From contig JBFGJH010000002.1 in NCBI GenBank assembly GCA_041577335.1, positions 16,389 to 80,388 on the forward strand: a stretch of DNA of 64,000 bases, in the 5' to 3' direction. This document shows positions 1,930 through 29,371 of the stretch, piece after piece; position 1 is the stretch's first letter, and each line of letters begins with the position of its first letter. A model generated the notes under the pieces. The model did not search any database. It had not been told where the DNA came from and was given only the letters and a program-made list of their open reading frames with translations. This DNA is from Acidimicrobiia bacterium (GTDB lineage Bacteria; Actinomycetota; Acidimicrobiia; Spongiisociales; JAENVV01). Made by a program: the position numbers and the translations under genes.

Positions 1930-1936
1930 AGGGGCT

Positions 1937-2749: not shown

Positions 2750-2750
2750 G

Positions 2751-3857: not shown

Positions 3858-3863
3858 CCCCTC

Positions 3864-5063
3864 TCAGTGCCGCGGCGTCTCGATGACGGTGCGGTAGAGC
3901 TTTTCGATCTCGTGGGCGACATCATCGCTGTTGAAGTCGTCGATCATGCGCTGGCGGGCTGCCTCCCCGAGCCGGCGTCGAAGCTCGTGATCGGTGCCCA
4001 ATTCGACCACTGCCTTGGCGATCGCTGCCGGATCTTGGGCCGAGACCAACAAACCGGTGTCTCGGTCACTCACGACCTCTGTCATGGGCGGCCGATCGGT
4101 GGTGACGCAGGCCAAGCCGCTGGCCATTGCCTGAAGGAGTGAGACCCCGAGCCCTTCGTAGAGAGAAGGGAATACAAAGATGTCCGCGGCGGCGAGCAAA
4201 CGGGGGATGTCCGGTCGCACTCCGATGAGGCGCACCGAGTCGGCAAGACCCAGTTCGGCGCTCTCCGTCGTGATTGGTGATGTTTTGGCCCCGGCGCTGC
4301 CCGCCGACAAGAAAACCGCGTTGGGAAGGTGTTCAAGAATCTCCGGCATTGCCCGCACAACGTAGATTTGGCCTTTCTGGGCGACCTGACGTCCTATGTT
4401 GAAGAGCAAGAGCGTGTCTTCGGATAGGCCGAATTCGAGAAGGACGCTTCGGCGCACCTCGCCTCTTTCCTCGGGGTCCGGCAGAGTGGCCGTGTCGACG
4501 CCGCGAGGGATGACCGTGATCTTCTCGGGGGGGATGTGAACGGTCTCAGCCCACGATCGGGCCACTTCCTGGCTCAGAGCGTGAAATCGAGTGATCCACC
4601 GCATCGTCAGTCTGTCGACGGCTCTGTGGAGGGCGAGCTTGAGTGGCGTGACTGCGTCGTTGTCCACCGCATGGACAGGCTCGTGGCTGACGTTCACCAG
4701 GCTCTCGACAACGGGAACGGCAGTGAGCCGACCAGCTACCCGTGCTGCCAGCGCGGCATCCGGGAGAGCACAATGCACCAGGTCCGGCGAGCGACTTCGG
4801 AAAGCGCCGAACATGCGCCGGATGAGTCGGAGCCGATTGCGGGTGCGTTCGTGCTGCGAGTAGAGGTAGGTGATCCGGACGTGGCCGGGCACTTCGCTTT
4901 CCCTGGTGTTGCCCTCTCCGGGGTAGAGACAGAGCAGTTCGTGTTCGAATCCGGCGTCCGTGAACCTTTGAAGGTTCGTGACCAGCTGCTGCTCGGCTCC
5001 CCCTGAGCGCCCGAGGGAGTCGATGACGTGCATGATGCGCATGGGCCGTTTTGATGCGGTCAT
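3864..5063 (-). CDS. Glycosyltransferase family 4
   Basis: The N-terminus is GT4-type (MRIMHVIDSLGRSGGAEQ). The C-terminal segment FVFPSLYEGLGVSLLQAMASGLACV carries the E-x7-E motif. The six-frame ORF runs on to 5276 but that extension overlaps the upstream gene, so I chose the ATG at 5063, which overlaps the upstream stop. Confidence 0.8.
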   Translation of the reverse strand: MTASKRPMRIMHVIDSLGRSGGAEQQLVTNLQRFTDAGFEHELLCLYPGEGNTRESEVPGHVRITYLYSQHERTRNRLRLIRRMFGAFRSRSPDLVHCALPDAALAARVAGRLTAVPVVESLVNVSHEPVHAVDNDAVTPLKLALHRAVDRLTMRWITRFHALSQEVARSWAETVHIPPEKITVIPRGVDTATLPDPEERGEVRRSVLLEFGLSEDTLLLFNIGRQVAQKGQIYVVRAMPEILEHLPNAVFLSAGSAGAKTSPITTESAELGLADSVRLIGVRPDIPRLLAAADIFVFPSLYEGLGVSLLQAMASGLACVTTDRPPMTEVVSDRDTGLLVSAQDPAAIAKAVVELGTDHELRRRLGEAARQRMIDDFNSDDVAHEIEKLYRTVIETPRH

Positions 5064-6202
5064 GGGACGTGCACGATTCGGTCGTAGTGTTTCTGGACGG
5101 CTGCCGCCACGGCTTCGGTGCCATACCGTTCGCTTGCCCAGCGGCTGATGACGGCTGGTGCCGCGAACTCGTCGGTCTCGAAGCCTTTGATGATGGCCTC
5201 GGCCACCGCCACGGCACTGGGGTCGTCGAAGGCAATCCCAACATGGGCAGCGAGCTCTTCGGAAACCCCGCCGCATCTGATCGTTACCGCAGGCGTGCCA
5301 CTGAGGAGCGCCTCCACGATGGCGACCCCGAAACTCTCGCGTTCTGAGGTGTGTACGTACAGAACCGCGTCCTGGAGGAGATCGGCAATCGTTTCGCGCT
5401 TCGTCTGGCCGTGGAATGTGATCGCACTTGCGAGGCCGAGTTCAGAGGCGAGGCGTTCGAGGCTCGCTCGCTGATCTCCACCCCCGATGATGTCGAGGTG
5501 GGTGTCGGGGTACCGAGCCACGACATGTTGCAGAGCGGCAATGAGCAGGTCATGGCGCTTCCGCGTGAGCAGATGCCCGATGGTGACGATCCGCCCGCCG
5601 GTCGAAGGAAGTGGCTTGGGATGGAACAGCGATGTATCGACTGGATTGGGGATAACGTCGAATGTGCCGGTGGCTCCGAGGCGACACGCCGATTCTTTCT
5701 GCTCCTCGCCGACGAAGAAAACTGCGGCAGCCTCGGCAAAGACGAGTTTCATGATGCGTATGCCTTCCCGGCTCAGGTGATGTTCTGGGTCTGGAGCGGC
5801 GAGGCGGCTGGTGTGCTCGGTGAGGACGAACGGGATTTGTAGTTGTCTGGCGACGCTGGGGATGGCTGCGGCGCCGGCGTAGAAATGACCGTGAATGATG
5901 TCCGGGTCCCAGTTGAGGAGCGTGAGCGCTCTGCGGATGGCGGCAGCCTCCCGGCCGGCGTTCCATTTCCAGAACAGACGCACCGGGCGTAGTCGTCGTC
6001 TCCGAACGAATACCGTCGTGAAGCCGCCGACGTCTCCAAGTGCGATTCCTTTTCCGATTCGTTCGGCTTGGCGAGGCAACGTCGGCAAGACACTGAGGCC
6101 GGTAACCCGCGAGAAGCGGGCTACAGCCTTGGCCCAATCGGTGATGAATGTCGGTCCACCCAGGCCGAGCATGACGCAGTGGTATTCACGCATCGGTGCC
6201 AC
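5060..6202 (-). CDS. Glycosyltransferase family 4
   Basis: YVHTSERESFGVAIVEALLSGTPAV is a GT4 E-x7-E motif. The N-terminal GT-B domain is present. Confidence 0.8.
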   Translation of the reverse strand: MAPMREYHCVMLGLGGPTFITDWAKAVARFSRVTGLSVLPTLPRQAERIGKGIALGDVGGFTTVFVRRRRLRPVRLFWKWNAGREAAAIRRALTLLNWDPDIIHGHFYAGAAAIPSVARQLQIPFVLTEHTSRLAAPDPEHHLSREGIRIMKLVFAEAAAVFFVGEEQKESACRLGATGTFDVIPNPVDTSLFHPKPLPSTGGRIVTIGHLLTRKRHDLLIAALQHVVARYPDTHLDIIGGGDQRASLERLASELGLASAITFHGQTKRETIADLLQDAVLYVHTSERESFGVAIVEALLSGTPAVTIRCGGVSEELAAHVGIAFDDPSAVAVAEAIIKGFETDEFAAPAVISRWASERYGTEAVAAAVQKHYDRIVHVP

Positions 6203-7037
6203 CTGTCGCGCGATATCCGAGGGCCATCATTTCGGGGCGACACCGTTCTTCTATCCGCATCATGTTGGCGGTCCCGAAAAACTCGACGAGCGGAACGTTG
6301 CGATTGGCCCCTTTGGCCTGGAATTGCTGATCGACCGACGCGGAGATATCTCCGGCCATGGGGAGTCCGAGCTGCTCCGCCAATCTCGCGATGGCGGCGG
6401 TCTTGTTCGCCCGAAAATCTTCATAACGAATGAGCGTGATGTCGGCCTCGTGGTCGAGGTACACCCGGACCATATCGGCCCATCGATCGGCGATCGCTTC
6501 GAGGTAGGTACTGCGATCGAAACCGGGCCGACCTTCGCCAAGGATCAAGCGCCAAGGTTTGGGAATATCGGCCCACCGGTCTGCGGCGATGGCTTCGTCG
6601 TCACCGGCGAGATCGAGTCGGTCGAGGATGCTCCGGATGTTGTCGCGCGGGTCGCGAACCACGAATACGAACTGGGAATGCGGGAAGCGGTTGTGGAGAG
6701 CCGGGTAGATCAGTGTCAGGTTGGGGTGCTTGACGATTGGAGCCGCGAACTCGTCTCGGTTCCTTTTGATGAGGTCCTCGAGGTCGGCTTGGCCGGAAAC
6801 GATGCGGGGAATGATGAGGTCACGGATCTCCTGTTTGAGGTCGATCGTCACGTCCATGCCCGTTTGCTCACCGAGCAAGGCAGCAATGACCGAAGTGCCG
6901 GCTTTCTGGTGGCCCAGGATGAACACGGGCTGATGGCTCGGCGGGAGCGGTGGAGCGGTAAACGAACGCCATCGGGTGATCGCGGAGCGCCGGGCGCGTC
7001 CGGCGGCCGAGCGGATGCGGTGGGCAGTGATGGTCAT
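6186..7037 (-). CDS. Sulfotransferase family protein
   Basis: It has FILGHQKAGTS as the 5'-PSB P-loop and FVFVVRDPRDNIRS as the 3'-PB motif. I chose the start at MTITAH (the ATG at 7037), which overlaps the deacetylase stop by 4 nt. The longer ORF upstream of that is an out-of-frame overlap with the deacetylase gene. Confidence 0.75.
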   Translation of the reverse strand: MTITAHRIRSAAGRARRSAITRWRSFTAPPLPPSHQPVFILGHQKAGTSVIAALLGEQTGMDVTIDLKQEIRDLIIPRIVSGQADLEDLIKRNRDEFAAPIVKHPNLTLIYPALHNRFPHSQFVFVVRDPRDNIRSILDRLDLAGDDEAIAADRWADIPKPWRLILGEGRPGFDRSTYLEAIADRWADMVRVYLDHEADITLIRYEDFRANKTAAIARLAEQLGLPMAGDISASVDQQFQAKGANRNVPLVEFFGTANMMRIEERCRPEMMALGYRATGGTDA

Positions 7038-7858
7038 GGTCCGTCGTATTTGGTCAATCGGCGCCGCACATTCTCTTCCGTGCGTTGTCCCCGGCGCACC
7101 TTGCGTTTGAAGAAGATCACTCCATCGTCGAGCTGCACGGGGATCCGGTTGAGAAGGAGCGGGTCGCTGGCGCCGTCGATGGGCTGGCCCCCCCCGAGTA
7201 CTGCTGAGGCGTACTGTTCCCGAACCGCACTGTCGCATGATCGTGACCAGTAGCCCCACGGATAGGCGAAGTGGTCGGGCTTGACGCCGGTGCGGCGTTC
7301 GATGAGTTCGGTGGACAGGCCGATCTCTTCCTCTGCCTGTGGTGGTTCCAGCGTTCGGAAGTCCGGGTGGGTGTGGGTGTGGGCGCCGACGGTCACGAGA
7401 CCCGACTCCTGCATCGCATTGACCTGCTCCCAGGTGATCGGCGCCGATCGGCCGTCGTCCGACAACGGCGTCCGAGCTTCGATGGGGTGGCTGGTGAGGT
7501 AGACCGTGAATGGGATGTGGAATTCCTTGAGCAGTGGATAAGCGTTGCGGTACATATCGTCGTATCCGTCATCGAACGTGAGCACCACATGGTCAGCCGA
7601 GCCGGATTCCGCCCTCCGGTCGATCGCCTCCTCCAGGGGAAGGACCGAGAAGCCGGAGTTGGTCAAGTACTCGAGGTGACTACGGAAGTGGTCAGGGTCG
7701 AGGTCCATTTGTTTGCGGTTGCCGGCGCCGATTTGGTGATAGATGAGGATCCTGGGGCCTGGAAAGGCTCCCAAGGAAAGGTCGAGGAGCGAGAAGACCG
7801 TTTTGGCCGCCGCTCGGACGGGAGAGCCCATCAGGCGGATCCGCCGGAATCGAGCCAT
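7034..7858 (-). CDS. Polysaccharide deacetylase (CE4/NodB-homology)
   Basis: The NodB motifs are present: VVLTFDDGYDD, YLTSHPIEAR, a histidine cluster and HTHTHPDF. It is translationally coupled to the sulfotransferases on both sides. Confidence 0.85.
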   Translation of the reverse strand: MARFRRIRLMGSPVRAAAKTVFSLLDLSLGAFPGPRILIYHQIGAGNRKQMDLDPDHFRSHLEYLTNSGFSVLPLEEAIDRRAESGSADHVVLTFDDGYDDMYRNAYPLLKEFHIPFTVYLTSHPIEARTPLSDDGRSAPITWEQVNAMQESGLVTVGAHTHTHPDFRTLEPPQAEEEIGLSTELIERRTGVKPDHFAYPWGYWSRSCDSAVREQYASAVLGGGQPIDGASDPLLLNRIPVQLDDGVIFFKRKVRRGQRTEENVRRRLTKYDGP

Positions 7859-8754
7859 TGGAGGTCGTAGCCGAGGAGGGCAGCAAGGTGCTCGTTGTGT
7901 TGTCGGAAGACGTCGGCCAGATGCTCACGAATGCCCGTGTCCACGGCGAGGCTGTCGGCGCGCCCCGCTCTCCCATAGCTGTGATTGGCAAACTCGGGTG
8001 GGTGCCAGTCCTCGATTCCCAAGAACGATTCGATCGCCGAAAGGGCGTGCCGAGGGTCGGAGGTGAGGTCCTCGAACCGAACCACCATCATCTGGTCTTG
8101 GGGGTACCAGGCTTGCCACCGGATGAGCTGTTCGGCGTATTTGCCTCGCTCGACATAAGAGTACCGTCGCAGCGGCCGGGCGTGATACGTCGGGTCGTCG
8201 GCGATGCGCTCCATTTCTCGGGCAAGGCGCTCGTCCTCGCGCTGCAACGCCTCCTCGAGAGTCAGCGGTTCTTGGCCGAGGCGCCGATTGTGTCCGTATT
8301 GGGAAATCGCACGGTCGATGGGATTGCGAATGAGGGTGATGATCTTCGCTTCTGGGATCAGGTGGGCGGCCCGCTGCGCCGCCAGGGGATGCAAGAGGTA
8401 ATCGGGGGTCGCCTCGAACGCCAAGGTGGGTTGCGCGCGTCGCCTTGAACGGACAGTTCGGCTTGCGCTGAGTGGGAAATGTGCCCGGTACCAATCCTCG
8501 CCCTCGAGGAACCTCGTCGAGAAATACTCCACCTCCTTACGAAGCGATGGATACACCTGCGGATGTGCTCCGAGATATTTGTACAGCGAACTCGTCCCGG
8601 ACCGTTGGGCGCCGACGATGAGCAGGTCGGGGAGGCTGCGCGCCCGAGAAGTCAACTGGCGTGTGCGAACGCGGGTCTCGGCGAGCTGGCGGCGCCGTTT
8701 GGTCGGAGTCTTCTCCTTGATCCATCCAGCGATCGCTGGAGTCACCGCAGGCAC
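7831..8754 (-). CDS. Sulfotransferase family protein
   Basis: LLIVGAQRSGTSSLYKYL is the PAPS P-loop and ITLIRNPIDRAISQYGH is the 3'-PB motif. Confidence 0.8.
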   Translation of the reverse strand: MPAVTPAIAGWIKEKTPTKRRRQLAETRVRTRQLTSRARSLPDLLIVGAQRSGTSSLYKYLGAHPQVYPSLRKEVEYFSTRFLEGEDWYRAHFPLSASRTVRSRRRAQPTLAFEATPDYLLHPLAAQRAAHLIPEAKIITLIRNPIDRAISQYGHNRRLGQEPLTLEEALQREDERLAREMERIADDPTYHARPLRRYSYVERGKYAEQLIRWQAWYPQDQMMVVRFEDLTSDPRHALSAIESFLGIEDWHPPEFANHSYGRAGRADSLAVDTGIREHLADVFRQHNEHLAALLGYDLQWLDSGGSA

Positions 8755-8757
8755 GGC

Positions 8758-11124
8758 CTAGCGACCAGAGCTGGCGGTATCGTCGTAGGAGCTGAGACGC
8801 TGCTCTCGGGGAACCTGGGGGAGGGGCTCCATATCGTTGTATGGCCACTCTTTGATCCAGTCGACGACCGCTCGGGTGCGAGACACCGGAGTCGGATGGT
8901 TCGGGGACGCGCTGGTCGCGTCGATGGCTACCTGGTCGGTCTCGGGCGCAGAACGAGGCTTCTTCTTGGGGGGTGGCGCAGGCGGTTCGGATGGCACGTT
9001 GACGCTCTGGGGTTTCTGACTGGTGCGGCGCGAGGGTGCTGGTCCGGGTGACGATGCCGCTTCCTTCGCGGGTGCTGGCGCAGCGGGTGCTGGCACCTCG
9101 GCGGCCGGAGTATCGGATGGCTGGGCAGCCGGAACCGCGGGTGCAGGTGCGGTGGGCGCTGCGGCTTTCTTCTGCTTCTTTTCGGTTTTCTGTTCTTTCT
9201 TCTTGGCTCTGGTTGCCTTCTTGGTCTGGGTTGGACTGCTGGTCGTAGCTCGGCTCCCTTTGCGGCTCTTCGGGCGGAAGAAGTTGCGAATCCTGCCGAA
9301 GAACCCTGACGATGGTGAGCCGGTGAGCAGCGCCGCACCCAAGGCGGGAGCCAGCCCTGCATCGACGTCGGTAAGCAGTAGATCCAGGGCGGCGCGGCGG
9401 CTCACTCGCTCCAGGACCACGGCCACGACGCCGTCGACCCGCTGGCGGAGAGCCTGGGTGAGCTCGGCCGACGCAGGTGGCATGACTGCGAGGATGACGT
9501 CGAAGTGCTGACGAGCCGCGCTCATCAGATCAACGAAACCGTCGGTGAGCACAGCATCGGTGGCGTCGTCGATCATGCTCCCTGGGGCAACGACTCTCAG
9601 TTTCCTCTCCTCGGGCCCGTCGATCAGGGTTTCCTTGAAGTAGGAGTTGCCGGTCTCCCGGTCATTGCGCATGACCTGCAGGAGTTTGGAAACGGTTACG
9701 CCGCTGCTTCCTTCGTAGTGGACGGTGGTGTCGAAGTTCAGATCGACGACGAGGACGAAGCGGTCGGATGCGGCGAGGCGGTTGCCGATGTCGAGCGCCA
9801 AGATGCTCACTTCGCTGTCGTTGACGCTCACCCCAGACAGTCCGAGGACCAGCGTGGTAGGCGATGAATCGACATAGCGGAGTATTGCGTGGCGCATCTG
9901 GCGAACACCATCGGCGCGTTCGCCTGCCAATCGTCCCGAGCGGTCCGTGCTGGCGCGCCCCTTCGTCGTTGCTGCACTGGGCAGCTCGGCGATGACCGGC
10001 AGCGGAGCGATGTCGGTCGGCCCGTAGATATTGCCGCGAGCGCTCTTGGATGCAAAGAGCAGACCGACACCGAGCAGGGCCCCGGCCAGCAGTCCGAGAA
10101 CGGCGTTGAGTGGAGCGGAGACGGGCGACGGGGTGAGGTCCTCGACCTCGACGGGTACCAGGACCGCCGGAGTCTCGCTTTCCGCTTCGAGGAAAAGATC
10201 GCCGAACTCGGAGGTGAGGTCGCCGTAGCGGTCCTCGAGCGCGTCGAGCGTCAACTGATCGGTGAGACCTCCCTCCGGCACTTCGTCAGGTGTGACGTCG
10301 CGCGGATCCTGAGGCACGTTGGGCGCAGCCGGCGTTTGCGAACCTCCCTGGTTGCCCTGATTCGTCTGCGGCGTGATGTCTGCCGGGTTGAGTCCGTTCT
10401 CCAAAGCAATGACTACGAGCTCAGACCTGATCGCGGCCATCCGGAATTGGATGTCGTCGATCTGTTCTTGAATCTCCTCGGGGTCATCGACTCGTTCGTC
10501 GCCCGATTGCGCCAACACGAGGTTGACTTCGAGTTGGGTGAGCTGCTGGTCGAGGGCATCATGGAGGTCCTGGAGAGAATCGATACGAGCTTGGAGGGCG
10601 ACGCCGATGACTGGCTCCTCGACGATCAACTCGACCGGTGTCAGGCGTTCGATCTGTTGCAGGACTTCGGCAGCTTCGATGATGATCTCGTCGAGGCGTG
10701 CTTGGCGTTCATCGGCACGTGCTTGAGCCGTGCCGTTGACGTAGGCGGCGCGAAGGCTCTCGGAGGCAACCGCGGCCTCGGTCCGGTCTTCGCTTCTCGC
10801 CAAAAAGAGGAGTCGGAAGTTGGGCTCGTCGATGGCCAACTGGCCGACTCGTTGCTCGAGGGCGGTGGCGTTGTAGACACGTGCTTCTTCGGCGGCTGCC
10901 CTGACGAGTTCCAGCGTGGTGTCGCGACTCCGATCGCCCAGCTCCGATTCGAACTCGACGTAGGTGGTCGCCTCGAAGAGAGGTTTGATGGCTTGGTTGG
11001 CCCGCTCTGATATGGCGTACCCGAGCACTGCACCCACGAGCGCCAGCGCGACGACTGCCCACCACTTGCGGCGGACCATTCGAAAAAGACCTGTGAGAAC
11101 TTTCAAACCGCTCATACCCCCCAA
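8758..11124 (-). CDS. Polysaccharide co-polymerase / BY-kinase-like protein with degenerate Walker A and long K/A/P-rich tail
   Basis: An N-terminal TM helix is followed by a long coiled-coil periplasmic region and a second TM helix. The cytoplasmic domain is CpsD/Wzc-like (VLVVDLNFD and FDVILAVMPP), but the Walker A position reads GLSGVSVNDSEV, with no GKS/T. The C-terminal 150 aa or so is low complexity (KKATRAKKKEQKTEKKQKKAAAPTAPAPAVP and so on). Confidence 0.6.
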   Translation of the reverse strand: MGGMSGLKVLTGLFRMVRRKWWAVVALALVGAVLGYAISERANQAIKPLFEATTYVEFESELGDRSRDTTLELVRAAAEEARVYNATALEQRVGQLAIDEPNFRLLFLARSEDRTEAAVASESLRAAYVNGTAQARADERQARLDEIIIEAAEVLQQIERLTPVELIVEEPVIGVALQARIDSLQDLHDALDQQLTQLEVNLVLAQSGDERVDDPEEIQEQIDDIQFRMAAIRSELVVIALENGLNPADITPQTNQGNQGGSQTPAAPNVPQDPRDVTPDEVPEGGLTDQLTLDALEDRYGDLTSEFGDLFLEAESETPAVLVPVEVEDLTPSPVSAPLNAVLGLLAGALLGVGLLFASKSARGNIYGPTDIAPLPVIAELPSAATTKGRASTDRSGRLAGERADGVRQMRHAILRYVDSSPTTLVLGLSGVSVNDSEVSILALDIGNRLAASDRFVLVVDLNFDTTVHYEGSSGVTVSKLLQVMRNDRETGNSYFKETLIDGPEERKLRVVAPGSMIDDATDAVLTDGFVDLMSAARQHFDVILAVMPPASAELTQALRQRVDGVVAVVLERVSRRAALDLLLTDVDAGLAPALGAALLTGSPSSGFFGRIRNFFRPKSRKGSRATTSSPTQTKKATRAKKKEQKTEKKQKKAAAPTAPAPAVPAAQPSDTPAAEVPAPAAPAPAKEAASSPGPAPSRRTSQKPQSVNVPSEPPAPPPKKKPRSAPETDQVAIDATSASPNHPTPVSRTRAVVDWIKEWPYNDMEPLPQVPREQRLSSYDDTASSGR

Positions 11125-11303
11125 AGCAGACGAAGAGACGGACTGCCGCCTCTCACGCCACCGCCACTCTAGCCCACCTTGTCGCCCAAGTCACGAGGCC
11201 GATCTATATACCTCTCTTAACCCTCACGGCGTTGGGCGCTTAACCCACTGGTGGATAGGTTTCTCCCTAGTGGGTAGGGAGGTTCGAGACAGTCTGGCGC
11301 CGA

Positions 11304-13055
11304 TTGATCCCCGTTGCGGCGCCCCAACAATCGATGAGGTCGCTCCCCATGTCCCTTCCCATCAATCCCCGGCTGGTAGTCGCAATCGCACTCACGTTAG
11401 GTGCTTTTGCGCTCGCTTTTGGTGGCATCCAGGCAAACGCCGCCACGGTCGTCCAGATCTCCGGCGAGGTTTCCTACCCGCAGTCGACCACCGTCACATC
11501 AGACGAGGTGCTTCGCTTCGATCCCGCCCAAGACACGACGCTGGAGGTGAGCGGGAACCTCGTCATCGAGGGGACGCTCGAGATGAAACCCAATAAGGGC
11601 GTGACGCACACGCTCCGGTTCCTCGCGGTCAATGAGGCCGGCATGGTCGGCGGCGGGATGCAGGTGCTCGAATCCGATCGCGGGCTCTGGGTCGTGGGAA
11701 GCGGACAGCTCGACCTGCACGGCGAAGAAACAGTGGGTTGGAATCGCACCGGGACGGATTCCACGTGGAGCTCGAGCGACGACCTGAGGATCGCCCCCTA
11801 CCTCGCAGGTGATTACGCGTCCGGAGGATTCGACTCCTTTGCGCTCGGTTCGCCCGTGCCGGTCGCCGATCCCACACTTCCCCCAACAGAGGTCATGAAT
11901 CTGACCCGGTCGGTCAACATCGAAGGTACGCCGGGGGGACGATCCCATGTGATCGTCATGAGCTCCCAGCCGCAAGAGGTTCGCTACGCCACGTTCCGGT
12001 ACATGGGACCACGCCAGGACTCCGAGGGCGTGATGGGCAGGTATCCGATCCATTTCCACATGAACGGTGACAGCTCCCGAGGATCGATCGTCGAAGGAAA
12101 TGTGGTCCGTGAGTCAGGAAATCGCGGCATCGTCGTTCACGCGTCGCATGGCGTGATCGCACGGGGCAACGTGATCTATGACGTAGTCGACGACCCATTC
12201 TGGTGGGACCTCGGTGAGGAGAACGCCTCCCACGACGTGGTATTGGAGGGCAACCTCGCAGGTCTGGTCAAGAACGACCCCAAGAAACAGGGCTACACCC
12301 TGTCGGCATTCCACCTCGGTCGCGGTGAAGGCAACGTTGCCAACGGGAACGTTGCAGTGGGCGTCCAAGGCAACAAGAACTGCTCTGGCTTCAACTGGCC
12401 GAGTCAAGGGAGCGGCCTGTGGGAGTTCCAGGACAACGTTGCCCACAACAACAAGTGTCACGGCATCTTCGTGTGGCAGAACAGCTCCGCCAACCACCTC
12501 ATCGAGGATTTCATCGCCTACCGCAACGGGTCTACCGGCGTGAATCACGGGGCTTACACCAATGACTATGTCTACGAGAACCTCTACTTGTTCGAAAACC
12601 TGGAATACGGCGTGGTCAGCCACGCGTTCTCGCACCCGCCGCGTTCAGGGCAGCTCCAGCAAACCTGGTCGTGCGTCACAGTCGTCGGCTCGCCAGTCGG
12701 CCTGTCGGTTTCGGTTTCCAACGCCCCCGAGTTCGGGCATCCGGCGTTGTTCGACCATTTCACGGTGATCGATACGCCGGTGGCCACGCATGTCGAGCAA
12801 AACGCACTCGAAAACGGCCAGACGCTCGAAACAAGGGTGACGTTGGTGAACTTCAATGTTCCATGTGTCGGATCGCCGGTCCCTGATCCTGACGAGCCTG
12901 ATCCTGACGAGCCTGATCCTGACGAGCCTGATCCTGATCAGCCTGATCCTGATCAGCCTGATCCTGACGAGCCTGATCCTGACGATCGGCCGGAGCGGCC
13001 CGACCGGCCGCAACGTCCGCCCCGTGGTCCACGGTGGATATCGGGTACTCCGTAA
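11304..13055 (+). CDS. Secreted right-handed parallel beta-helix protein with C-terminal (PDPDEP)n tail (putative glycan hydrolase/lyase)
   Basis: It has a signal peptide (VVAIALTLGAFALAFGGIQANA) and repeated beta-helix rungs (NVVRESGNRGIVVHASHGV, NVAHNNKCHGIFVWQNSS). It is a paralogue of the next gene. The start could instead be the ATG at 11334 or 11349. Confidence 0.65.
   Translation: MIPVAAPQQSMRSLPMSLPINPRLVVAIALTLGAFALAFGGIQANAATVVQISGEVSYPQSTTVTSDEVLRFDPAQDTTLEVSGNLVIEGTLEMKPNKGVTHTLRFLAVNEAGMVGGGMQVLESDRGLWVVGSGQLDLHGEETVGWNRTGTDSTWSSSDDLRIAPYLAGDYASGGFDSFALGSPVPVADPTLPPTEVMNLTRSVNIEGTPGGRSHVIVMSSQPQEVRYATFRYMGPRQDSEGVMGRYPIHFHMNGDSSRGSIVEGNVVRESGNRGIVVHASHGVIARGNVIYDVVDDPFWWDLGEENASHDVVLEGNLAGLVKNDPKKQGYTLSAFHLGRGEGNVANGNVAVGVQGNKNCSGFNWPSQGSGLWEFQDNVAHNNKCHGIFVWQNSSANHLIEDFIAYRNGSTGVNHGAYTNDYVYENLYLFENLEYGVVSHAFSHPPRSGQLQQTWSCVTVVGSPVGLSVSVSNAPEFGHPALFDHFTVIDTPVATHVEQNALENGQTLETRVTLVNFNVPCVGSPVPDPDEPDPDEPDPDEPDPDQPDPDQPDPDEPDPDDRPERPDRPQRPPRGPRWISGTP
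12883..12990 (+). repeat. 18-bp tandem repeat (cctgatcctgacgagcct x6, minor variants) encoding PDPDEP/PDPDQP
   Basis: The repeat is directly visible in the sequence. It is in frame within the CDS 11304..13055. Confidence 0.9.
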
Positions 13056-13250
13056 TCGAAATCTCCCGGCCTGCCTGAACTCTCGCCGACTTGTTGCACG
13101 TTTAACTAAAGCGGGGAGCCTGGTTAACCGATGCTGCATGAGGGTTCAGGCGGGCTGAGGGGCAACACACATCTCCCAAGATGGGAGTGTCGCCCGCACA
13201 GGAACAGCCCACCCGGGCAAACCCAGAAAACCACGAGAGGTCGTTCTCCC

Positions 13251-15362
13251 ATGTCGTACGCCGCGAGGTTCCCCAGACTCGCTGTCAGCGTCGTATTCGT
13301 ATTGCTGGCGGCGCTCATCGCCATAGTCGGTTGGTCGCGGTCCGCCGACGCCGCGGCTGTCACAGAGGTGTCCGGTGATGTGTCCTACTCGGCCAGTACG
13401 ACAATCGCCGCCGGAGAAGTGCTGAAGTTCGATCCAGCCAAGGACACAACCCTCGAGGTCAGCGGCAACCTGGTCATCGCCGGGACCCTCGAGATGAAAC
13501 CCAACAACGGAGTCACTCACACCCTTCGATTTCTCGGCGTCGATGAGTCGAGCTTCATCGGTGGCGGCGTCGAGGTACTCGAATCTGACCGGGGACTGTG
13601 GGTGACCGGAGCGGGCAAACTCGACTTGCAGGGCGAAGAAAAGACAGGCTGGAACCGGACCGGAACCGATGCCACCTGGAAGTCGAGCGACGAACTGAAG
13701 ATCGCTCCCTATCAGATGGGTGACTATGCGGTAGATGGCTTCGACTCCTTCAGCCTGGGGTCATCGGTTCCAAAGGCCGACCCGTCTCTGCCCGCCACAG
13801 AGGTCATCAACCTCACTCGCTCAGTCAATATCGAGGGGACAAGCGGAGGAAGGTCGCACGTGACCATCATGAGCTCGGTCCCCCAAGAGGTGCGATACGT
13901 CGCGTTTCGTCACATGGGGCCCCGCCAGCCCGACGGTGACGGCGATACCGAGGGCGTGATGGGCCGCTATCCGCTGCATTTCCACACGACGGGAGACGGG
14001 TCGCGAGGGTCCGTCGTCGAAGGAAACGTCGTTCGCGACTCGGGCCACCGCGGCATTGTCGTCCACCTCTCCAACGGTGTGACTGTCTCCGACAACGTCA
14101 TCTACGACGTCTACGACGACGTGTTCTGGTGGGATCTCGGAGAAGAGAACGCCAGCGACGATGTCGTGTTCGAGGACAACTTCGTGGGTCTGGTGAGGAC
14201 CGACCCCGTGAACCAAGGTTTCACGCTCAGCGGATTCCATCTCGGTCGCGGTGAAGGCAACGTTGCCAACGGCAACGTGGTTGTGGCCGTCCTAGGCAAC
14301 AAGAACTGTTCCGGGTTTCAGTGGCCGAGCCAGGGCAGTGGGCTCTGGGAGTTCCAGGACAACGTTGCCCACAACAACAAGTGTCACGGCATCTTCGTGT
14401 GGCAGAACAGCTCCGCCAACCACCTCATCGAGGATTTCATCGCCTACCGGAACGGCACCGCGGGCGTGAGTCACGGCGCCTACACCAACGACTACGTCTA
14501 CGAAGACGTCTATCTCTTCGAGAACGAAGAGATGGGCATCATCAGTCACGCGTTCTCACACCCACCGCGGACGGGCCAGATGCAGCAGACGTGGTCATGC
14601 GTCACGGTGGTTGGCTCCCCAGTCGGCCTGACAGTGGCAGTTTCGAATGCCCCCGAGGTCGGGGATCCGGCCATCTTCAATTACTTCAAGACGGAGGACA
14701 CCCCCGTCCTCTACGAGGTCCAAGAAGCCGCCCTGGACAAGGGACAAACCATCGACGCGCGGGCAACCTTCAACAACCTGAACGTGGACTGCCCCGCCGG
14801 TGGCTTCAGCGGAACGGTCGTCGGCGAGGGCATCTTTGTCGACGATGACGCTTCGCCGCACGAAGCCAACATCGAGCTCATCGCCGAGGCCGGGATAACC
14901 GTGGGTTGCAATCCTCCCGACAACGATATGTTTTGCCCTGGTGACCCGGTGACGCGGGCGCAGATGGCGACGTTCCTCGCCCGTGCATTGGCTCTGCCGG
15001 CTCCATCGAACGACTACTTCAGAGATGATGATGCCTCGACCCATGAAGGCGGGATAAACGCCCTTGCGGCGGCCGGGATCAGCAGCGGATGCAACGAGGC
15101 AAACACCAACTACTGCCCCGGTGACCATGTGACGAGAGCGCAGATGGCCAGCTTCCTCGCACGAGCGCTGAACCTTCCCGCCGATTCTGCGAACTGGTTC
15201 GTCGATGACGACAAGTCGTCGCACGAAGCGAACATCAACGCGTTGGCGTCCGCCGAGATCACCTCGGGATGCAAGCCGGCTGATCGCCTGTTTTGCCCGG
15301 CCGACTCGGTAACCCGAGCCCAGATGGCGACGTTCCTGGTGAAGGCACTGAATCTCAACTAA
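13251..15362 (+). CDS. Secreted parallel beta-helix protein with three C-terminal SLH domains
   Basis: It has a signal peptide (VVFVLLAALIAIVGWSRSADA) and a beta-helix core about 80% identical to the upstream paralogue. Three C-terminal repeats of about 55 aa (F.DDD.S.HE..I..LA.AGI..GC....FCP...VTRAQMA.FL..AL.L) match the S-layer-homology domain pattern. Confidence 0.7.
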   Translation: MSYAARFPRLAVSVVFVLLAALIAIVGWSRSADAAAVTEVSGDVSYSASTTIAAGEVLKFDPAKDTTLEVSGNLVIAGTLEMKPNNGVTHTLRFLGVDESSFIGGGVEVLESDRGLWVTGAGKLDLQGEEKTGWNRTGTDATWKSSDELKIAPYQMGDYAVDGFDSFSLGSSVPKADPSLPATEVINLTRSVNIEGTSGGRSHVTIMSSVPQEVRYVAFRHMGPRQPDGDGDTEGVMGRYPLHFHTTGDGSRGSVVEGNVVRDSGHRGIVVHLSNGVTVSDNVIYDVYDDVFWWDLGEENASDDVVFEDNFVGLVRTDPVNQGFTLSGFHLGRGEGNVANGNVVVAVLGNKNCSGFQWPSQGSGLWEFQDNVAHNNKCHGIFVWQNSSANHLIEDFIAYRNGTAGVSHGAYTNDYVYEDVYLFENEEMGIISHAFSHPPRTGQMQQTWSCVTVVGSPVGLTVAVSNAPEVGDPAIFNYFKTEDTPVLYEVQEAALDKGQTIDARATFNNLNVDCPAGGFSGTVVGEGIFVDDDASPHEANIELIAEAGITVGCNPPDNDMFCPGDPVTRAQMATFLARALALPAPSNDYFRDDDASTHEGGINALAAAGISSGCNEANTNYCPGDHVTRAQMASFLARALNLPADSANWFVDDDKSSHEANINALASAEITSGCKPADRLFCPADSVTRAQMATFLVKALNLN

Positions 15363-15410
15363 CCAAAACTCGCCCTATGGGTTGGCCTTGTCGCCGCTTA
15401 TGCTGGCGTC

Positions 15411-16847
15411 GTGGTGATCGACGACAAGGAAGCAGCGAAGCCGGGGTTGGCAGCGTTCGTTCCGAGCCAAACCGCCCCGCCGCGTCTGCCGTGGGGCCTC
15501 TGGGCCATCCTGGCTGTGCTCTTCATGGCCTTGGTCGGTTCGTTTGCCTTCGGCGCTACCGAAGCAGGAACGTTCGCGCTTCTCATCCTCCTGGCGTTTC
15601 CGATTGCACTCATGGCCAAGAACGCCGCCAGCCCACTCGATTCGCAATGGATACCGAATTGGATCATGGCGGGTTGGGCGGCCAAGCTGGCAGCTTCGAT
15701 CGGCCGTTATTGGGCGCTCGAGGTTTTGTACAACGGTGTCGGTGATGCCACCGGGTATCACAATTTCGGAACTCGCTACGCCGACATGTGGCGAGCGTTG
15801 GAAGTCCCGCCCTTCGGGACCGGAACCGAATTCATCCAATGGGCCACCGGCGTGCTCTACATTCCGTACACGCCGACCAAGCTCGGCGGGTTCGTGCTGT
15901 TCGCCACGATTGCCTTCGTCGGACAGATCTTGCTCTATCTGGCGTTTCGGCGAGCCCGGCCCCATGCAAGGCTCAAATGGTACGCCGGACTGATCTTCTT
16001 CTTCCCGAACATCGTCTACTGGCCTTCCAGCATCGGCAAAGAGTCGCTGATGATCTTCTTCATCGGCATCGCCGCCTACGGAGCCGTGAGGATGTTTGCC
16101 GAGTACCAGGCGATGTGGATGGCTGTGGTGGCCATCGGGCTGGTGGGCACCGGCGTGATTCGATCGCATATTGCCCTACTCATCATCGGGTCGCTGACGG
16201 TGGCAGTTGTCTTTGGAAGGGGCCCAGAGAACGCCCCCGCCCGAATGCGGCGCCTCATCTCGGCGGTCGTTGCCGTGATCTTGTTGGTTGGCGTGGGAGC
16301 GTGGGCAATCCAAGACTTTGGCATCGATCTCAGTAGCGGTGTCAGTGACGAACTTCTCACCGAGGAGCTCGACCCGATCTTCGCAGGCGTCGAAGAGCAG
16401 ACCGACAAGGGCGGCTCGGCCGTCGAGGGCAGCGCCATCCGCTCGCCGCTCGATGTTCCCGAAGCCGTGCTGCGGGTTGTGTTTCAGCCACTTCCGTGGG
16501 ATGCCCACAACACTCAGGCGCTGGTGAACAGCTTTGTCGAGGGCATGTTCCTGCTGTTGCTGTTCATATGGAGGCTTCCCGCCATAGCGCGGGGCTTCTT
16601 CCGGAAGGCGCGAGACCCGTATGTGATGTTTTCGCTCGTGTATACGGCAGGGTTCATCTTTGGGCACAGCGCGGTCCTGAATCTCGGCATCATGGCTCGG
16701 CAACGGTCTCAGCTCATTCCGTTCGTGCTGGTGATCCTCGTTGCGATGGGAATGAACGACTCGGGGAAAGACGTTGCCGAGCTCGAAGACACGTCGGCCA
16801 AATCGCCATTACCACCCAAGACACTTGTGGTCGTAGAATCGCCCTAG
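15411..16847 (+). CDS. Polytopic integral membrane protein, putative glycan polymerase/ligase or GT-C-like
   Basis: It has ten or more predicted TM segments, a large central loop (DLSSGVSDELLTEELDPIFAGVEEQTDKGG) and sits within the glycan locus. I recognise no specific family motif. Confidence 0.35.
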   Translation: MVIDDKEAAKPGLAAFVPSQTAPPRLPWGLWAILAVLFMALVGSFAFGATEAGTFALLILLAFPIALMAKNAASPLDSQWIPNWIMAGWAAKLAASIGRYWALEVLYNGVGDATGYHNFGTRYADMWRALEVPPFGTGTEFIQWATGVLYIPYTPTKLGGFVLFATIAFVGQILLYLAFRRARPHARLKWYAGLIFFFPNIVYWPSSIGKESLMIFFIGIAAYGAVRMFAEYQAMWMAVVAIGLVGTGVIRSHIALLIIGSLTVAVVFGRGPENAPARMRRLISAVVAVILLVGVGAWAIQDFGIDLSSGVSDELLTEELDPIFAGVEEQTDKGGSAVEGSAIRSPLDVPEAVLRVVFQPLPWDAHNTQALVNSFVEGMFLLLLFIWRLPAIARGFFRKARDPYVMFSLVYTAGFIFGHSAVLNLGIMARQRSQLIPFVLVILVAMGMNDSGKDVAELEDTSAKSPLPPKTLVVVESP

Positions 16848-21176: not shown

Positions 21177-21262
21177 CTTGAAGCCTCTGGCTTCAAGAAG
21201 CGACGATGCGCTCTGGGCTCCAACTTCTTGAAGCCTCTGGCTTCAAGAAGCGACGATGCGCT
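21177..21262. repeat. Tandem 36-bp direct repeat (period 50 bp), each copy containing a 9-bp-stem hairpin (tcttgaagcc-tctg-ggcttcaaga); the second copy spans the stop codon of the CapD-like gene
   Basis: Copies at 21177-21212 and 21227-21262 are identical. Each contains an internal palindrome. They lie between convergent genes, so a bidirectional terminator is likely. Confidence 0.7.
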
Positions 21263-27279: not shown

Positions 27280-27317
27280 GGACGGTTGCTGGGGGGGAAA
27301 GATCATTGGTTTCAGCC

Positions 27318-29361: not shown

Positions 29362-29371
29362 GCGTTGTTCC

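Follow-up and report, generated by a model that had tools for sequence, protein, structure and literature searches.

A predicted kinase-dead, Wzc-like co-polymerase with a tether-like C-terminal tail in a sulfotransferase-rich gene cluster of an Acidimicrobiia bacterium

The window, that is, the whole stretch of 64,000 nucleotides that was analyzed, carries on its minus strand an open reading frame for a Wzc-like co-polymerase (PCP) with a degenerate BY-kinase-fold domain. Downstream of it lies a string of co-directional genes, and a set of divergent genes starts on the opposite strand.

973..7259 (-), rest of the co-directional gene string, in the same order in the orthologous locus L001
973-1929 (-), sulfotransferase
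1937-2749 (-), ABC-2 permease of a DrrAB/NodIJ-type exporter
2751-3857 (-), ABC ATPase of a DrrAB/NodIJ-type exporter
3864-5276 (-), GT4 glycosyltransferase
5060-6202 (-), GT4 glycosyltransferase
6186-7259 (-), sulfotransferase
7034..7858 (-), NodB/PgaB-type polysaccharide N-deacetylase
7831..8754 (-), downstream cytoplasmic sulfotransferase
8755..8760 (-), one TAG stop codon (8758-8760) and 3 further nt, followed in frame by the sulfotransferase ORF
8758..11124 (-), whole ORF of the Wzc-like co-polymerase with the dead BY-kinase-fold domain, 788 aa from the longest start
11304..16847 (+), divergent partners conserved with the family, from neighborhood comparison
11304-13055 (+), secreted CEMIP-type beta-helix protein
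13131-15362 (+), secreted CEMIP-type beta-helix protein with SLH repeats
15411-16847 (+), GT-C-fold membrane glycosyltransferase (GT-C/OST-like), the window's only otherwise unassigned polytopic protein

None of the sulfotransferases, the deacetylase or the two GT4 glycosyltransferases of the string has a TM segment. No Pfam match to Wzx, Wzy or O-antigen ligase was obtained in the window, where an ABC-2 exporter is present instead, and no Wza/OPX or Wzb was identified in the vicinity. The host appears to be a monoderm actinobacterium. Low-complexity tails occur commonly in its genome, as exemplified by the PDPDEP tail of the 11304-13055 product.

The true start of the ORF is probably the TTG at 11104-11106 or the ATG at 11113-11115. 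The start called in the database is the ATG at 11079, but the peptide GLKVLTGLFR upstream of it is kept in the L001 ortholog, which suggests a start further upstream. The AlphaFold2 (AF2) model of the 788-residue protein displayed a mean pLDDT of 79, with most of residues 1-612 above 90. An N-terminal helix, TM1, a helical ectodomain of 290 residues, a Pro/Gly-rich TM2, the BY-kinase-fold domain and a long tail follow each other in this order.

11068..11115 (-), residues 4-19, N-terminal cytoplasmic amphipathic helix SGLKVLTGLFRMVRRK (AF2 helix 4-19)
10999..11067 (-), residues 20-42, TM1 (hydropathy; AF2 helix 21-44)
10123..10998 (-), residues 43-334, extracytoplasmic domain (AF2; profile alignment)
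10042..10122 (-), residues 335-361, TM2 (hydropathy; AF2)
9289..9924 (-), residues 401-612, BY-kinase-fold pseudokinase domain (profile against PDB; Foldseek)
9892..9912 (-), O-motif equivalent D405-x2-R408-x2-R411 (column mapping to Wzc E508/R511/R514)
9805..9834 (-), residues 431-440, degenerate Walker A, GVSVNDSEVS (column mapping to Wzc)
9730..9756 (-), residues 457-465, Walker A' remnant, VLVVDLNFD (column mapping)
9475..9504 (-), residues 541-550, degenerate Walker B, FDVILAVMPP (column mapping)
9166..9288 (-), aromatic/basic helix 608-616 (FFGRIRNFF) and polybasic block 617-653 (AF2, charge count)
8893..9165 (-), residues 654-744, neutral spacer rich in Pro, Ala, Ser and Thr, predicted disordered and fast-evolving
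8761..8892 (-), residues 745-788, conserved C-terminal module (identity and dN/dS against the ortholog)

The peptide of the N-terminal helix is also kept in L001 upstream of the annotated start, as well as in the family consensus. In the AF2 model, the ectodomain consists of a small alpha/beta base and long helices (114-161, 175-206, 215-242 and 286-316), with a disordered, acidic and Pro-rich loop at 251-285, and residues 401-612 fold as an alpha/beta domain. A Pro/Gly-rich motif at the start of TM2 is a hallmark of PCPs (as defined in the papers of Morona and Cuthbertson). By inspection, such a motif (P332-x-P334-x3-P338...G344-x3-G348-x3-G352) precedes and overlaps TM2, and G344 is conserved in at least 90% of the family alignment. 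Hydropathy and AF2 thus bear out the layout given in the original prediction, with a kinase-like cytoplasmic domain after two TM segments and a helical extracytoplasmic region between them.

Searches of the PDB with the family profile retrieved Wzc (7e-28), Etk (4e-19), BceF (2e-16) and CapAB (1e-14), and the alignment to Wzc spans its residues 249-696, covering ectodomain helices, TM2 and the kinase domain. The single sequence alone gives only E = 1.4. Foldseek matched the AF2 model to Wzc at E = 4e-21, and the kinase domain reached target-normalized TM-scores of 0.72-0.75 against Wzc, CapAB and BceF. The Pfam Wzz match (PF02706) at residues 10-65 is below the cut-off (E = 0.001; 19.8 bits as compared to 25.5), and 9 of 60 family members match this entry at E <= 0.001. 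The kinase-type domain and the co-polymerase form one polypeptide, a layout kept in the full-length family members, some of the representatives being fragmentary. Fused co-polymerase/kinases are classified as PCP-2a, and split proteins of the CapA+CapB type as PCP-2b (PMC12004946). By its architecture the protein is Wzc-like PCP-2a and not PCP-2b, because the layout is fused and both profile and fold searches link it to full-length Wzc. The PCP2b label initially given to it was wrong. CapA/CapB of Staphylococcus aureus share the fold of the kinase domain (TM-score 0.74-0.75; profile E = 1e-14) and the Gram-positive setting. However, they consist of two chains, and their kinase is active and carries a Tyr cluster, whereas the present protein is a single chain whose ectodomain is larger and whose active site is dead, and the label is thus unfit.

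The stretch GLSGVSVNDSEVS (residues 428-440) is the Walker A region that had been predicted to lack the Lys-Ser/Thr pair. A motif search confirmed this, as GK[ST] is absent from the whole 788-residue protein, including shifted positions. The Gly-Lys-Thr columns of the Wzc Walker A correspond to Glu438-Val439-Ser440, so that Wzc K540 is replaced by Val439. The other two motifs had been expected to be kept, which was true for only half of Walker A' (hhhhDxDxR), where D461 is retained but Asn463 takes the place of the second Asp and Asp465 that of the Arg. It was not true for Walker B (hhhhDxxP), where the column of the catalytic Asp contains Val547. The O-motif (EX2RX2R, helix alpha2) reads D405-G-V-R408-Q-M-R411, with a conservative Glu-to-Asp change. 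Inspection of the last 180 residues revealed only Y762 and Y780 and no C-terminal tyrosine cluster, in agreement with the original prediction; canonical BY-kinases from the same search have clusters of the GYGYGY or YEYRY type at their ends. Judged by these motifs, the protein is a pseudokinase, since both the Walker A lysine and the Tyr cluster have been lost, and profile, fold and motif columns agree with the proposed Wzz/Wzc-type pseudokinase co-polymerase. We infer from the lost catalytic motifs that it would neither bind nor hydrolyze ATP nor autophosphorylate.

The same losses were observed in 134 of 142 aligned relatives, the remaining eight being canonical BY-kinases. In the 134 non-canonical representatives, the five most common residues in the Walker A Lys column are V (84), T (12), A (10), L (9) and I (7), with Lys not among these five; the Walker B Asp column contains V (59), A (39), S (16) and D (5). 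Both K and D are present in the canonical kinases of the same alignment (Walker B D in 8 of 8). Arg occupies the R411 column in 124 of the 134 members, and D461 (the first Asp of Walker A') and D542 are also conserved. The family comprises approximately 200 sequence clusters, is uncharacterized and gave no curated Pfam or NCBIfam family match above threshold; its members with names are Acidimicrobiia MAGs. The family-wide motif loss had been overlooked in the original prediction, as had the conserved C-terminal module and the fusions to sulfotransferases and deacetylases.

The conservation of D461 and D542 could be taken to suggest that the domain has kept kinase or ATPase activity by means of non-canonical residues, and some P-loop proteins tolerate unusual motifs. 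The presence of Val at the Lys position and of acidic residues at Gly positions, together with the missing Walker B Asp, is however family-wide, and there is neither a Tyr cluster to serve as substrate nor a phosphatase signature in the window. We therefore consider residual catalysis extremely improbable. A six-frame regular-expression search of the window gave no LMW-PTP signature, and no Pfam match to LMW-PTP or PHP-type phosphatases was found among the approximately 40 larger ORFs scanned. A second BY-kinase site (GxxxxGK[ST]) was not found in the window either.

The tail had been described as a disordered, Lys/Ala/Pro-rich segment of about 150 residues. Disorder and composition were confirmed, but the segment is approximately 132 residues long and is followed by a separate module of 44 residues. 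Residues 613-744 contain 12.9% K, 19.7% A and 19.7% P, as compared to a body with 1.3% K, 12.1% A and 4.7% P (binomial p = 2e-12, 8e-3 and 6e-10, respectively), and have a net charge of +16, as compared to -41 for the body. Of the +16, +14 is contributed by the 608-653 region. The pLDDT is below 50 for residues 624-749. The terminal module (745-788) is not of low complexity and consists of a helix (RAVVDWIKEW) followed by PLPQVPREQR. An NCBIfam DnaX match on the protein was compositional and was discounted.

The proposed resemblance to AlgP/H1-like KPAA tracts did not hold beyond composition, since TRF identified no tandem repeats in 8700-11200, KPAA-type repeats included, and Pfam gave nothing histone-like for the tail, only Lin-8 at E = 0.25. 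Like those tracts, the tail is basic, predicted disordered and rich in Lys, Ala and Pro, but its Lys residues sit in one 37-residue block, followed by a neutral spacer and a non-repetitive module. Within the family, a true H1-like repeat tail (AAKP/KKPA, net +41) occurs only in the distant member P0111. We take the tail to be a tether with a conserved end and not a histone-like domain, and a modest feature.

The tail is also present in the same frame in an independent assembly. Comparison with the ortholog showed 42% identity with indels and a dN/dS of approximately 0.16 for the linker (613-744), 93% and 0.03 for the module, and approximately 90% and 0.05 for the body, values that come from a single ortholog pair with synonymous sites near saturation. 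Assembly and substitution rates both support the original dismissal of a frameshift artefact. The strong purifying selection on the terminal 44 residues suggests that the linker must stay in frame and flexible. Could the linker nevertheless be functionless, a GC-driven low-complexity sequence and possibly the relic of a former fusion linker? Its low identity and indels next to a body conserved at about 90%, the absence of a codon-position GC signal and the great variation in length and composition of tails across the family are consistent with this. The dN/dS is however below neutrality, albeit with saturated dS, the ortholog keeps both the net charge (+15) and the K/P/A composition, and the selection on the module calls for a linker that stays in frame. 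This makes a functionless linker quite unlikely.

The tail should be cytoplasmic, because the helix before TM1 (SGLKVLTGLFRMVRRK) is basic and there are two TM segments. It is there that the polybasic sequence could bind a polyanion, either a cytoplasmic sulfated glycan intermediate or nucleic acid, and serve as a substrate-holding arm or as a tether to nucleoid or polymer. A net charge of +16 on a body of -41, its maintenance in the ortholog at just 42% identity, the repeat tail of P0111 and a K/S/T/A-rich tail in P0066 fit this idea, and a sulfated polymer would be cytoplasmic before export if the pathway is ABC-dependent. The next-closest relatives, whose loci are equally rich in sulfotransferases, have however neutral or acidic tails (P0004, -4; P0006, -3; P0008, -4), and the tail of P0045 has a net charge of -61. 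Neither KPAA repeats nor a histone-like Pfam match is present, and low-complexity tails, the PDPDEP tail being one, are common in the genome. Hence, to judge from the sequences, binding of polymer or DNA by the tail is not a family-wide trait, and for the present protein we regard it as rather unlikely.

In the approximately 40 residues next to the domain, which hold +14 of the charge, binding to the membrane is equally likely. The 608-616 helix and the 617-653 block might hold the pseudokinase ring at the anionic inner leaflet of the membrane, with the rest acting as a spacer. In 130 family tails, the first 35 residues past the domain have a mean net charge of +2.6, with 66 tails at +3 or above and frequent W/F-R/K patterns (WRRL, FRRL, RRW), and EcpK has a positively charged C-terminal helix for which contact with the membrane has been proposed (PMC12004946). 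On the other hand, this segment has a negative net charge in 31 of the 130 tails, the protein is already held in the membrane by two TM helices, and the conserved terminal module is left unexplained. Anchoring is thus a possibility that we hold tentatively and with more doubt than belief.

A helix and PLPQ(E)VPR motif related to the module was identified in the tails of P0004 and P0006, although the match is statistically weak (tblastn E = 1.2). Many family members have short tails (20-60 aa) and no module, which indicates that the module cannot be essential to the core function of the family.

A sulfotransferase and/or deacetylase gene adjoins the family gene in every sampled locus and follows it in L001, L002/L003, L004/L005 and L007. 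In some relatives the two are joined: orthologs of the 7831-8754 sulfotransferase (48-52% identical) are fused to the C-terminus of P0003, P0013 and P0118, and orthologs of the 7034-7858 deacetylase (47-48% identical) to that of P0032, P0099 and P0125. The fusions show functional linkage, not binding of the unfused proteins via the tail. The existence of true sulfotransferase fusions also raises the question of whether low-level stop readthrough yields small amounts of a PCP-sulfotransferase fusion here. The two ORFs share a frame and are separated by one stop, which is TAG in the window, TGA in L001 and TGA in the 39%-identical L004/L005 lineage. However, the probability that two independent lineages have in-frame spacing by chance is about 0.1, GTG or ATG starts lie 3-12 nt past the stop as in ordinary translational coupling, and no readthrough signal was identified. 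Readthrough is thus very unlikely.

Our preferred reading, which we consider somewhat more likely than not, is that the protein acts as a phosphorylation-independent, Wzc-like scaffold that couples cytoplasmic glycan tailoring to ABC-2 export. It builds on homology, fold, motif loss, the retained O-motif, tail disorder and substitution rates, fusions and synteny. The pseudokinase, unable to bind nucleotide, would oligomerize constitutively as a passive membrane scaffold, probably ring-forming, that keeps sugar-modifying enzymes beside the exporter. The glycan would be sulfated and partly N-deacetylated, built and tailored in the cytoplasm, and exported via the ABC-2 transporter of the same gene string. 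The tail would serve as a flexible tether, composed of the polybasic juxta-domain stretch, the fast-evolving Pro/Ala spacer and the helical 44-residue module, and the module would probably dock a partner, for which the sulfotransferase and/or deacetylase encoded directly downstream are the most plausible candidates. The ring interface of Wzc is formed by the O-motif residues, and its octamer is stabilized by catalytically dead variants (PMC9800525). There is also precedent for BY pseudokinases, EcpK and HfsB, as scaffolds for PCP-2 partners (PMC12004946).

Other observations count against parts of the scaffold model. The authors of the EcpK study argue that EcpK may not need oligomerization (PMC12004946), and the terminal helix has a pLDDT of only 50-62 in the AF2 monomer model, so that no docking site is predicted. 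To our knowledge, ABC-transporter pathways of monoderm bacteria do not normally involve PCPs, and the assignment to an ABC-2 pathway may thus be incomplete. The GT-C enzyme (15411-16847) and unrecognized components may alter the pathway picture.

The similarity to Wzc of E. coli (a PCP-2a tyrosine autokinase; PDB 7NHR, 3LA6) extends over TM1, the helical ectodomain, the Pro/Gly-rich TM2, the fused P-loop-fold domain and the Arg residues of the O-motif. The identity is however only about 11-17%, Walker A is without its Lys and Walker B without its Asp, there is no Tyr cluster, the tail has 176 residues as compared to the approximately 20-residue Tyr-rich tail of Wzc, and the locus is without detected Wza/OPX, Wzb, Wzx and Wzy in an apparently monoderm host. 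KpsE-type PCP-3 proteins (in the Cuthbertson/Whitfield classification) also cooperate with an ABC-2 exporter, and their polymer is completed in the cytoplasm; compared by description, they have no kinase-like domain and bridge to the outer-membrane OPX in diderms. EcpK of Myxococcus xanthus and HfsB of Caulobacter crescentus also have a BY-kinase fold without catalytic residues or Tyr tail and are proposed to be phosphorylation-independent scaffolds for PCP-2, and the basic C-terminal helix of EcpK, which may touch the membrane, is comparable to the present polybasic block (PMC12004946). They are, however, soluble stand-alone proteins of Gram-negative Wzx/Wzy pathways that bind the C-terminal extension of a separate PCP-2 (PMC12004946), whereas in the present protein, again compared by description, the pseudokinase is fused to the PCP, lies in an ABC-2 cluster and is followed at the C-terminus by a long tether or, in the relatives with fusions, by whole enzymes.

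The first experimental characterization of BY pseudokinases dates from 2025 (EcpK) and concerns only stand-alone proteins of Gram-negative Wzx/Wzy pathways (PMC12004946). What is new here is an entire family, with approximately 200 sequence clusters, whose dead kinase and co-polymerase form one fused protein. In Actinomycetota, this family occurs together with an ABC-2 exporter, a sulfate permease and several sulfotransferases. The fusions to tailoring enzymes lead to the testable idea that a kinase-dead ring organizes cytoplasmic modification at the export site. If true, this would help to explain how PCP-2 proteins function without phosphorylation cycles, and it would provide a handle for engineering microbial sulfated glycans. 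A bolder and unlikely extension is that the family represents a new class of Wzc-like machines that work without phosphorylation in uncultured Acidimicrobiia, a bacterial analogue of the eukaryotic "GAGosome", in which a locked pseudokinase ring physically recruits the tailoring enzymes. Some lineages would have sulfotransferase and N-deacetylase covalently fused to the ring, whereas here a tethered docking module would recruit them, heparan-like cytoplasmic tailoring would be coupled to ABC-2 export and GT-C-mediated surface transfer, and the polybasic arm would hold the nascent sulfated chain.

Another actinobacterial protein for comparison is WpsK of the Actinoplanes missouriensis wps-1 cluster. 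This cluster encodes recognizable Wzx and Wzy, unlike the present one, and the accessible part of the source describes neither the catalytic motifs of WpsK nor any fusions or tails (PMC13390465). According to the same text, published in 2026, bacterial sulfated polysaccharides are still considered exclusive to cyanobacteria (PMC13390465). It also reports that WpsK has Wzz-N and "polysaccharide biosynthesis and export" domains and that its cluster contains two sulfotransferases and is thought to make a sulfated polysaccharide, in which it resembles the locus described here (PMC13390465).

The open reading frame of the co-polymerase at 8758-11124 on the reverse strand was confirmed as a single ORF, as originally predicted, and encodes 788 amino acids from its longest start. 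The public copies P0001 and P0152 (773 amino acids) are annotated to start at Met16. Since the motif GLKVLTGLFR, located upstream of Met16, is kept in both the ortholog and the family consensus, translation probably starts at TTG 11106 or ATG 11115; a Shine-Dalgarno-like GGGGGG run precedes the candidate starts. Hydropathy analysis identified two transmembrane segments, at residues 20-42 and 335-361. The AlphaFold2 model, obtained with a 60-sequence alignment, had a mean pLDDT of 79, with residues 1-612 mostly above 90. From the N-terminus, it displayed a helix, TM1, an ectodomain made up mainly of long helices (114-161, 175-206, 215-242 and 286-316), TM2, an alpha/beta domain (401-612) and the tail, where pLDDT was below 50 over 624-749, interrupted solely by a short helix at 749-758.

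The protein sequence by itself appears almost unrecognizable. Searches with the single sequence gave sub-threshold matches to Wzz in Pfam (19.8 bits; cut-off 25.5) and to eps_fam in NCBIfam (E = 0.005), and a phmmer match to Wzc in PDB at E = 1.4. The homology therefore rests on the family profile and the fold. An exhaustive phmmer search with residues 1-616 against 1.84 billion representatives recovered 201 relatives at E <= 1e-3, of which 19 reached E <= 1e-30, and those with a named source come from Acidimicrobiia MAGs. A word-indexed homolog search found only three relatives with the single sequence and mainly canonical BY-kinases (bacterial tyrosine autokinases) with the profile, while a genome-collection scan with a 10-sequence alignment found one Acidimicrobiia locus. 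The family profile (60 sequences) matched the full-length Wzc of E. coli (E = 7e-28) in a single alignment that starts in the periplasmic helices, crosses TM2 and extends to where the kinase domain ends, and also matched Etk, BceF, CapAB and VpsO in PDB. Foldseek aligned the model to Wzc chains at E = 4e-21 and to the isolated kinase domains of Wzc, CapAB and BceF with target-normalised TM-scores of 0.72-0.75. Polysaccharide co-polymerases of the PCP-2a type have a fused layout and those of the PCP-2b type a split one (PMC12004946). Since both the profile and the fold match full-length Wzc, the Wzc/Wzz-type layout that had been proposed holds, but the layout is fused PCP-2a and the PCP-2b label is replaced.

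The catalytic columns were mapped by three independent alignments (profile to Wzc, single sequence to Wzc, and an hmmalign of 142 domain sequences, including 8 canonical BY-kinases from the same search and 134 non-canonical sequences), which agreed at all three motifs. Residues 428-440 read GLSGVSVNDSEVS, with Glu438-Val439-Ser440 in the place of the Walker A Gly-Lys-Thr. At Walker A', VLVVD461-L-N463 aligns with VLFIDAD, and at Walker B, ILAV547MPP aligns with IIIDTPP. The predicted absence of the Walker A Lys-Ser/Thr is thus confirmed, and a search of the whole protein for an intact motif at a shifted position found no GK[ST]. The alignments depart from the expectation that A' and B are kept: D461 of A' is retained, with N463 in place of the second Asp, and Walker B carries Val547. 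Judging from the alignments, Walker A and Walker B have been lost and half of A' retained. The C-terminal tyrosine cluster is missing, as had been noted, Y762 and Y780 being the only tyrosines among the last 180 residues.

The loss of Walker A and B is family-wide. Among the 134 non-canonical representatives, the Lys column holds Val in 84, Thr in 12, Ala in 10, Leu in 9 and Ile in 7, with Lys not among the top five; in the Gly column before it, Asp, Ala and Glu predominate; and at the position of the Walker B Asp, 114 have Val, Ala or Ser and 5 have Asp. All eight canonical BY-kinases in the alignment have the Lys, the Asp and C-terminal Tyr clusters. Residual kinase activity of the co-polymerase domain is very unlikely. 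The first A' Asp is kept in 122/134. Of the EX2RX2R oligomerisation motif, the final Arg is kept in 124/134, and the window protein has the whole motif, as D405-x2-R408-x2-R411. In the octameric ring of Wzc, the corresponding residues E508, R511 and R514 mediate the contacts between subunits, and Wzc variants that are kinase-dead or carry Tyr-to-Phe changes are considered to stabilise the assembled form (PMC9800525). A search of the window for a further GxxxxGK[ST] site attributable to a second BY-kinase, and for the LMW-PTP signature of a phosphatase, found neither. Outside the ABC exporter, canonical Walker A sites occur in the window only in a UvrA-like double ABC ATPase at 36754-39108 on the forward strand, which is unrelated to the co-polymerase.

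The tail differs strongly from the body in composition. Residues 613-744 contain 12.9% Lys (1.3% in the body, p = 2e-12), 19.7% Ala (12.1%, p = 8e-3) and 19.7% Pro (4.7%, p = 6e-10), with a net charge of +16 as compared to -41 for the body. The charge is uneven, +14 falling within 613-653, directly after the aromatic/basic helix FFGRIRNFF, and approximately 60 residues after 653 form a neutral Pro/Ala/Ser/Thr spacer. TRF found no tandem repeats in the tail at the DNA level, Pfam gave no match and no histone-like domain, and an NCBIfam match of the protein to DnaX was dismissed as compositional. Thus, the tail is histone-like, as it had been described, in its composition alone. Against the ortholog P0002 (81% identical; locus L001), which stems from an independent assembly, the tail separates into two parts.

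Divergence of the co-polymerase from the ortholog P0002
Body: identity 89-96%; dN/dS 0.05
Linker 613-744: identity 42%, with indels; dN/dS about 0.16, dS saturated
Last 44 residues: identity 93%; dN/dS 0.03 (pS = 0.57)

The contrast in identity and dN/dS between linker and end shows that the tail consists of a fast-evolving linker and a terminal module under strong purifying selection. The module comprises the helix RAVVDWIKEW followed by PYNDMEPLPQVPREQR. By inspection, the closest relatives after the ortholog, P0004 (RALDRLETVLEP...PLPQEVPRSER) and P0006 (EALERVERALEP, two copies), carry similar helix motifs in tails that are otherwise unrelated. A six-frame search of the window and the loci for other copies yielded only the ortholog and a weak match to P0004 (tblastn E = 1.2). 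An origin of the module as a duplicate of the sulfotransferase N-terminus, based on shared WIKE or PxSRxRA motifs, was unconvincing in shuffling tests (p = 0.01 to 0.2) and was dropped.

Variability of the tail agrees with a linker that has no function, which is at odds with the conserved end, and we regard this reading as improbable. Binding of a polyanion, as proposed in the original prediction, is consistent with a tail that is cytoplasmic and basic, with a charge kept in the ortholog, and with a sulfated intermediate that would be cytoplasmic; yet tails are neutral or acidic in the closest other relatives, whose loci are just as rich in sulfotransferases, and such binding seems unlikely. 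Membrane binding by the basic block next to the domain is also doubtful, if slightly less so: the first 35 tail residues show a moderate family trend (mean +2.6, with 66/130 tails at +3 or more), but 31/130 tails are negative over this stretch.

The C-terminal extensions of the family fall into classes, many of them short. The commonest appendage is a conserved domain of approximately 270 amino acids, present in 44 representatives (e.g. P0021, P0022, P0025; 10001-12685 in locus L007) and characterized by the motifs FF.RHV.RTDREP.VWHL.S and YPW...GW.P.WSEGI.PNLAPLQRLGLL. It has no match in Pfam, and its similarity to BrxX/PglX, the BREX methyltransferase, is weak and confined to that protein's C-terminal region (PDB 8c45, E = 7e-5). 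A few members have long unique disordered tails, including that of P0111 (basic) and strongly acidic ones such as that of P0045 (net -61). P0111 (10-2109 in locus L006) is a distant, N-terminally truncated member with a genuine histone-H1/AlgP-like tail of AEKVAAEKV repeats followed by approximately 15 KKPAAKK/AAKPVAKK repeats (net +41, weak Pfam HC2 match), and strongly basic repeat tails thus do arise in the family. Three members are fused to an ortholog of the downstream sulfotransferase of the window (48-52% identical) and three to an ortholog of its deacetylase (47-48% identical). These Rosetta-stone fusions offer the best clue to function, and the cytoplasmic end of the co-polymerase appears to be an attachment site of tailoring enzymes.

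The features surrounding the gene are as follows.

98-8754 and 21243-33006: large cluster, apparently for a sulfated glycan, in an Acidimicrobiia-like genome
2751-3857: ABC ATPase
3864-5276: GT4
5060-6202: GT4
6186-7259, reverse strand: sulfotransferase
7034-7858, reverse strand: NodB/PgaB-type deacetylase
7831-8754: downstream sulfotransferase
11125-11303: leader between the divergent operons
11304-13055, forward strand: secreted CEMIP-type right-handed beta-helix protein
13131-15362, forward strand: paralog of the preceding protein
15411-16847, forward strand: conserved membrane protein of 478 amino acids, 8-10 TM segments

The co-polymerase gene is the first of a co-directional string, followed by genes for a sulfotransferase, the deacetylase, a sulfotransferase, two GT4s, an ABC ATPase, an ABC-2 permease and a sulfotransferase. 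The sulfotransferases, the deacetylase and the two listed GT4s of the string lack TM-like segments. The two beta-helix proteins, one with SLH repeats, and the polytopic membrane protein are encoded divergently. Farther away, the window encodes a dehydratase of the PglF/WbpM type, an initiating transferase of the WecA type, additional GT4s, GNAT acetyltransferases, an epimerase and the sulfate permease SulP. The glycan cluster includes four sulfotransferases, SulP, the WecA-type initiator, the dehydratase and a number of GT4s and GNATs. In the window, genes for PAPS synthesis were not seen. The adjacency of deacetylase and sulfotransferase resembles an NDST-like logic. The longest ORF of the 6186-7259 sulfotransferase has an Arg/Pro-rich N-terminus and overlaps the deacetylase by 226 nt, and its true start is probably about 100 codons downstream, since the ortholog is called at 258 amino acids. 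The loci of P0002, P0003, P0004/P0162 and P0022 share these neighbours: orthologs of the 7831-8754 sulfotransferase and/or the deacetylase come after the co-polymerase gene, with beta-helix/SLH, GT-C, ABC-2 and further sulfotransferase genes nearby.

Wzx, Wzy and O-antigen-ligase families were not detected in the window. The 15411-16847 product had no match in Pfam or NCBIfam; those of its relatives that have a name are annotated as hypothetical proteins from Acidimicrobiia/Actinomycetota MAGs, two of them with Pfam PMT_2, and homologs are present in L002 and L007. Its confident model (pLDDT 89) was closest, though weakly, to the GT-C oligosaccharyltransferases STT3, AglB and PglB (Foldseek E = 7e-3 to 5e-2), with AftA also among the closest structures. 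It thus looks more like a GT-C oligosaccharyltransferase than a Wzy polymerase, and it probably transfers the exported glycan to an acceptor. The simplest pathway would comprise lipid-carrier assembly and tailoring in the cytoplasm, ABC-2 export and transfer outside. The two beta-helix proteins, each about 73% identical to the L001 ortholog of the other, are conserved beside the co-polymerase gene in L001, L002, L004 and L005. One protein ends in a low-complexity (PDPDEP)n tail and the other in three SLH repeats, and they may be cell-wall-anchored lyases, hydrolases or epimerases for the same polymer.

The co-polymerase and the downstream sulfotransferase lie in the same frame with one stop between them: TAG in the window (8754-8760), TGA in L001 (6975-6990) and TGA in the 39%-identical P0004 lineage (8414-8450 in L005). 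The junction could be a gene-fission relic or reflect translational coupling or low-level readthrough. Readthrough into a co-polymerase-sulfotransferase product would be consistent with the same pattern in two lineages and with the three relatives encoding both as one protein, but it has little statistical backing (p about 0.1), and the stop is followed by ordinary start codons; we consider it highly improbable.

We propose that the pseudokinase domain would bind no nucleotide and that the protein would form a ring that is not cycled by phosphorylation, a membrane scaffold that would gather the cytoplasmic tailoring enzymes and perhaps the ABC exporter. The 44-residue module, on a tether of approximately 130 residues, would dock a partner. 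We hold the pseudokinase scaffold to be very probable and the tether and docking to be tentative; the proposal as a whole is reasonably likely. Kinase-dead BY-kinase-like proteins are already known. Earlier surveys had pointed out PCP-2a sequences that are non-canonical, and the precedent for the scaffold is given by the stand-alone BY pseudokinases EcpK and HfsB, which have been studied experimentally and are proposed scaffolds for PCP partners (PMC12004946). The window protein is a fused version in Actinomycetota, set apart by an ABC-2 exporter with no detectable Wzx/Wzy, by a sulfation/deacetylation context and by a C-terminus that serves as an enzyme attachment point. A literature search found no paper on the family or on Acidimicrobiia sulfated-glycan clusters.

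The leader is 78% identical to that of the ortholog and more conserved than synonymous sites in the co-polymerase gene (pS 0.63). It contains a conserved hairpin and U-tract at 11133-11154, just before the GGGGGG run. Rfam has no family for the hairpin, and with a folding z-score of -0.29 there is no evidence for a structured RNA, which makes the leader more likely promoter/operator DNA.
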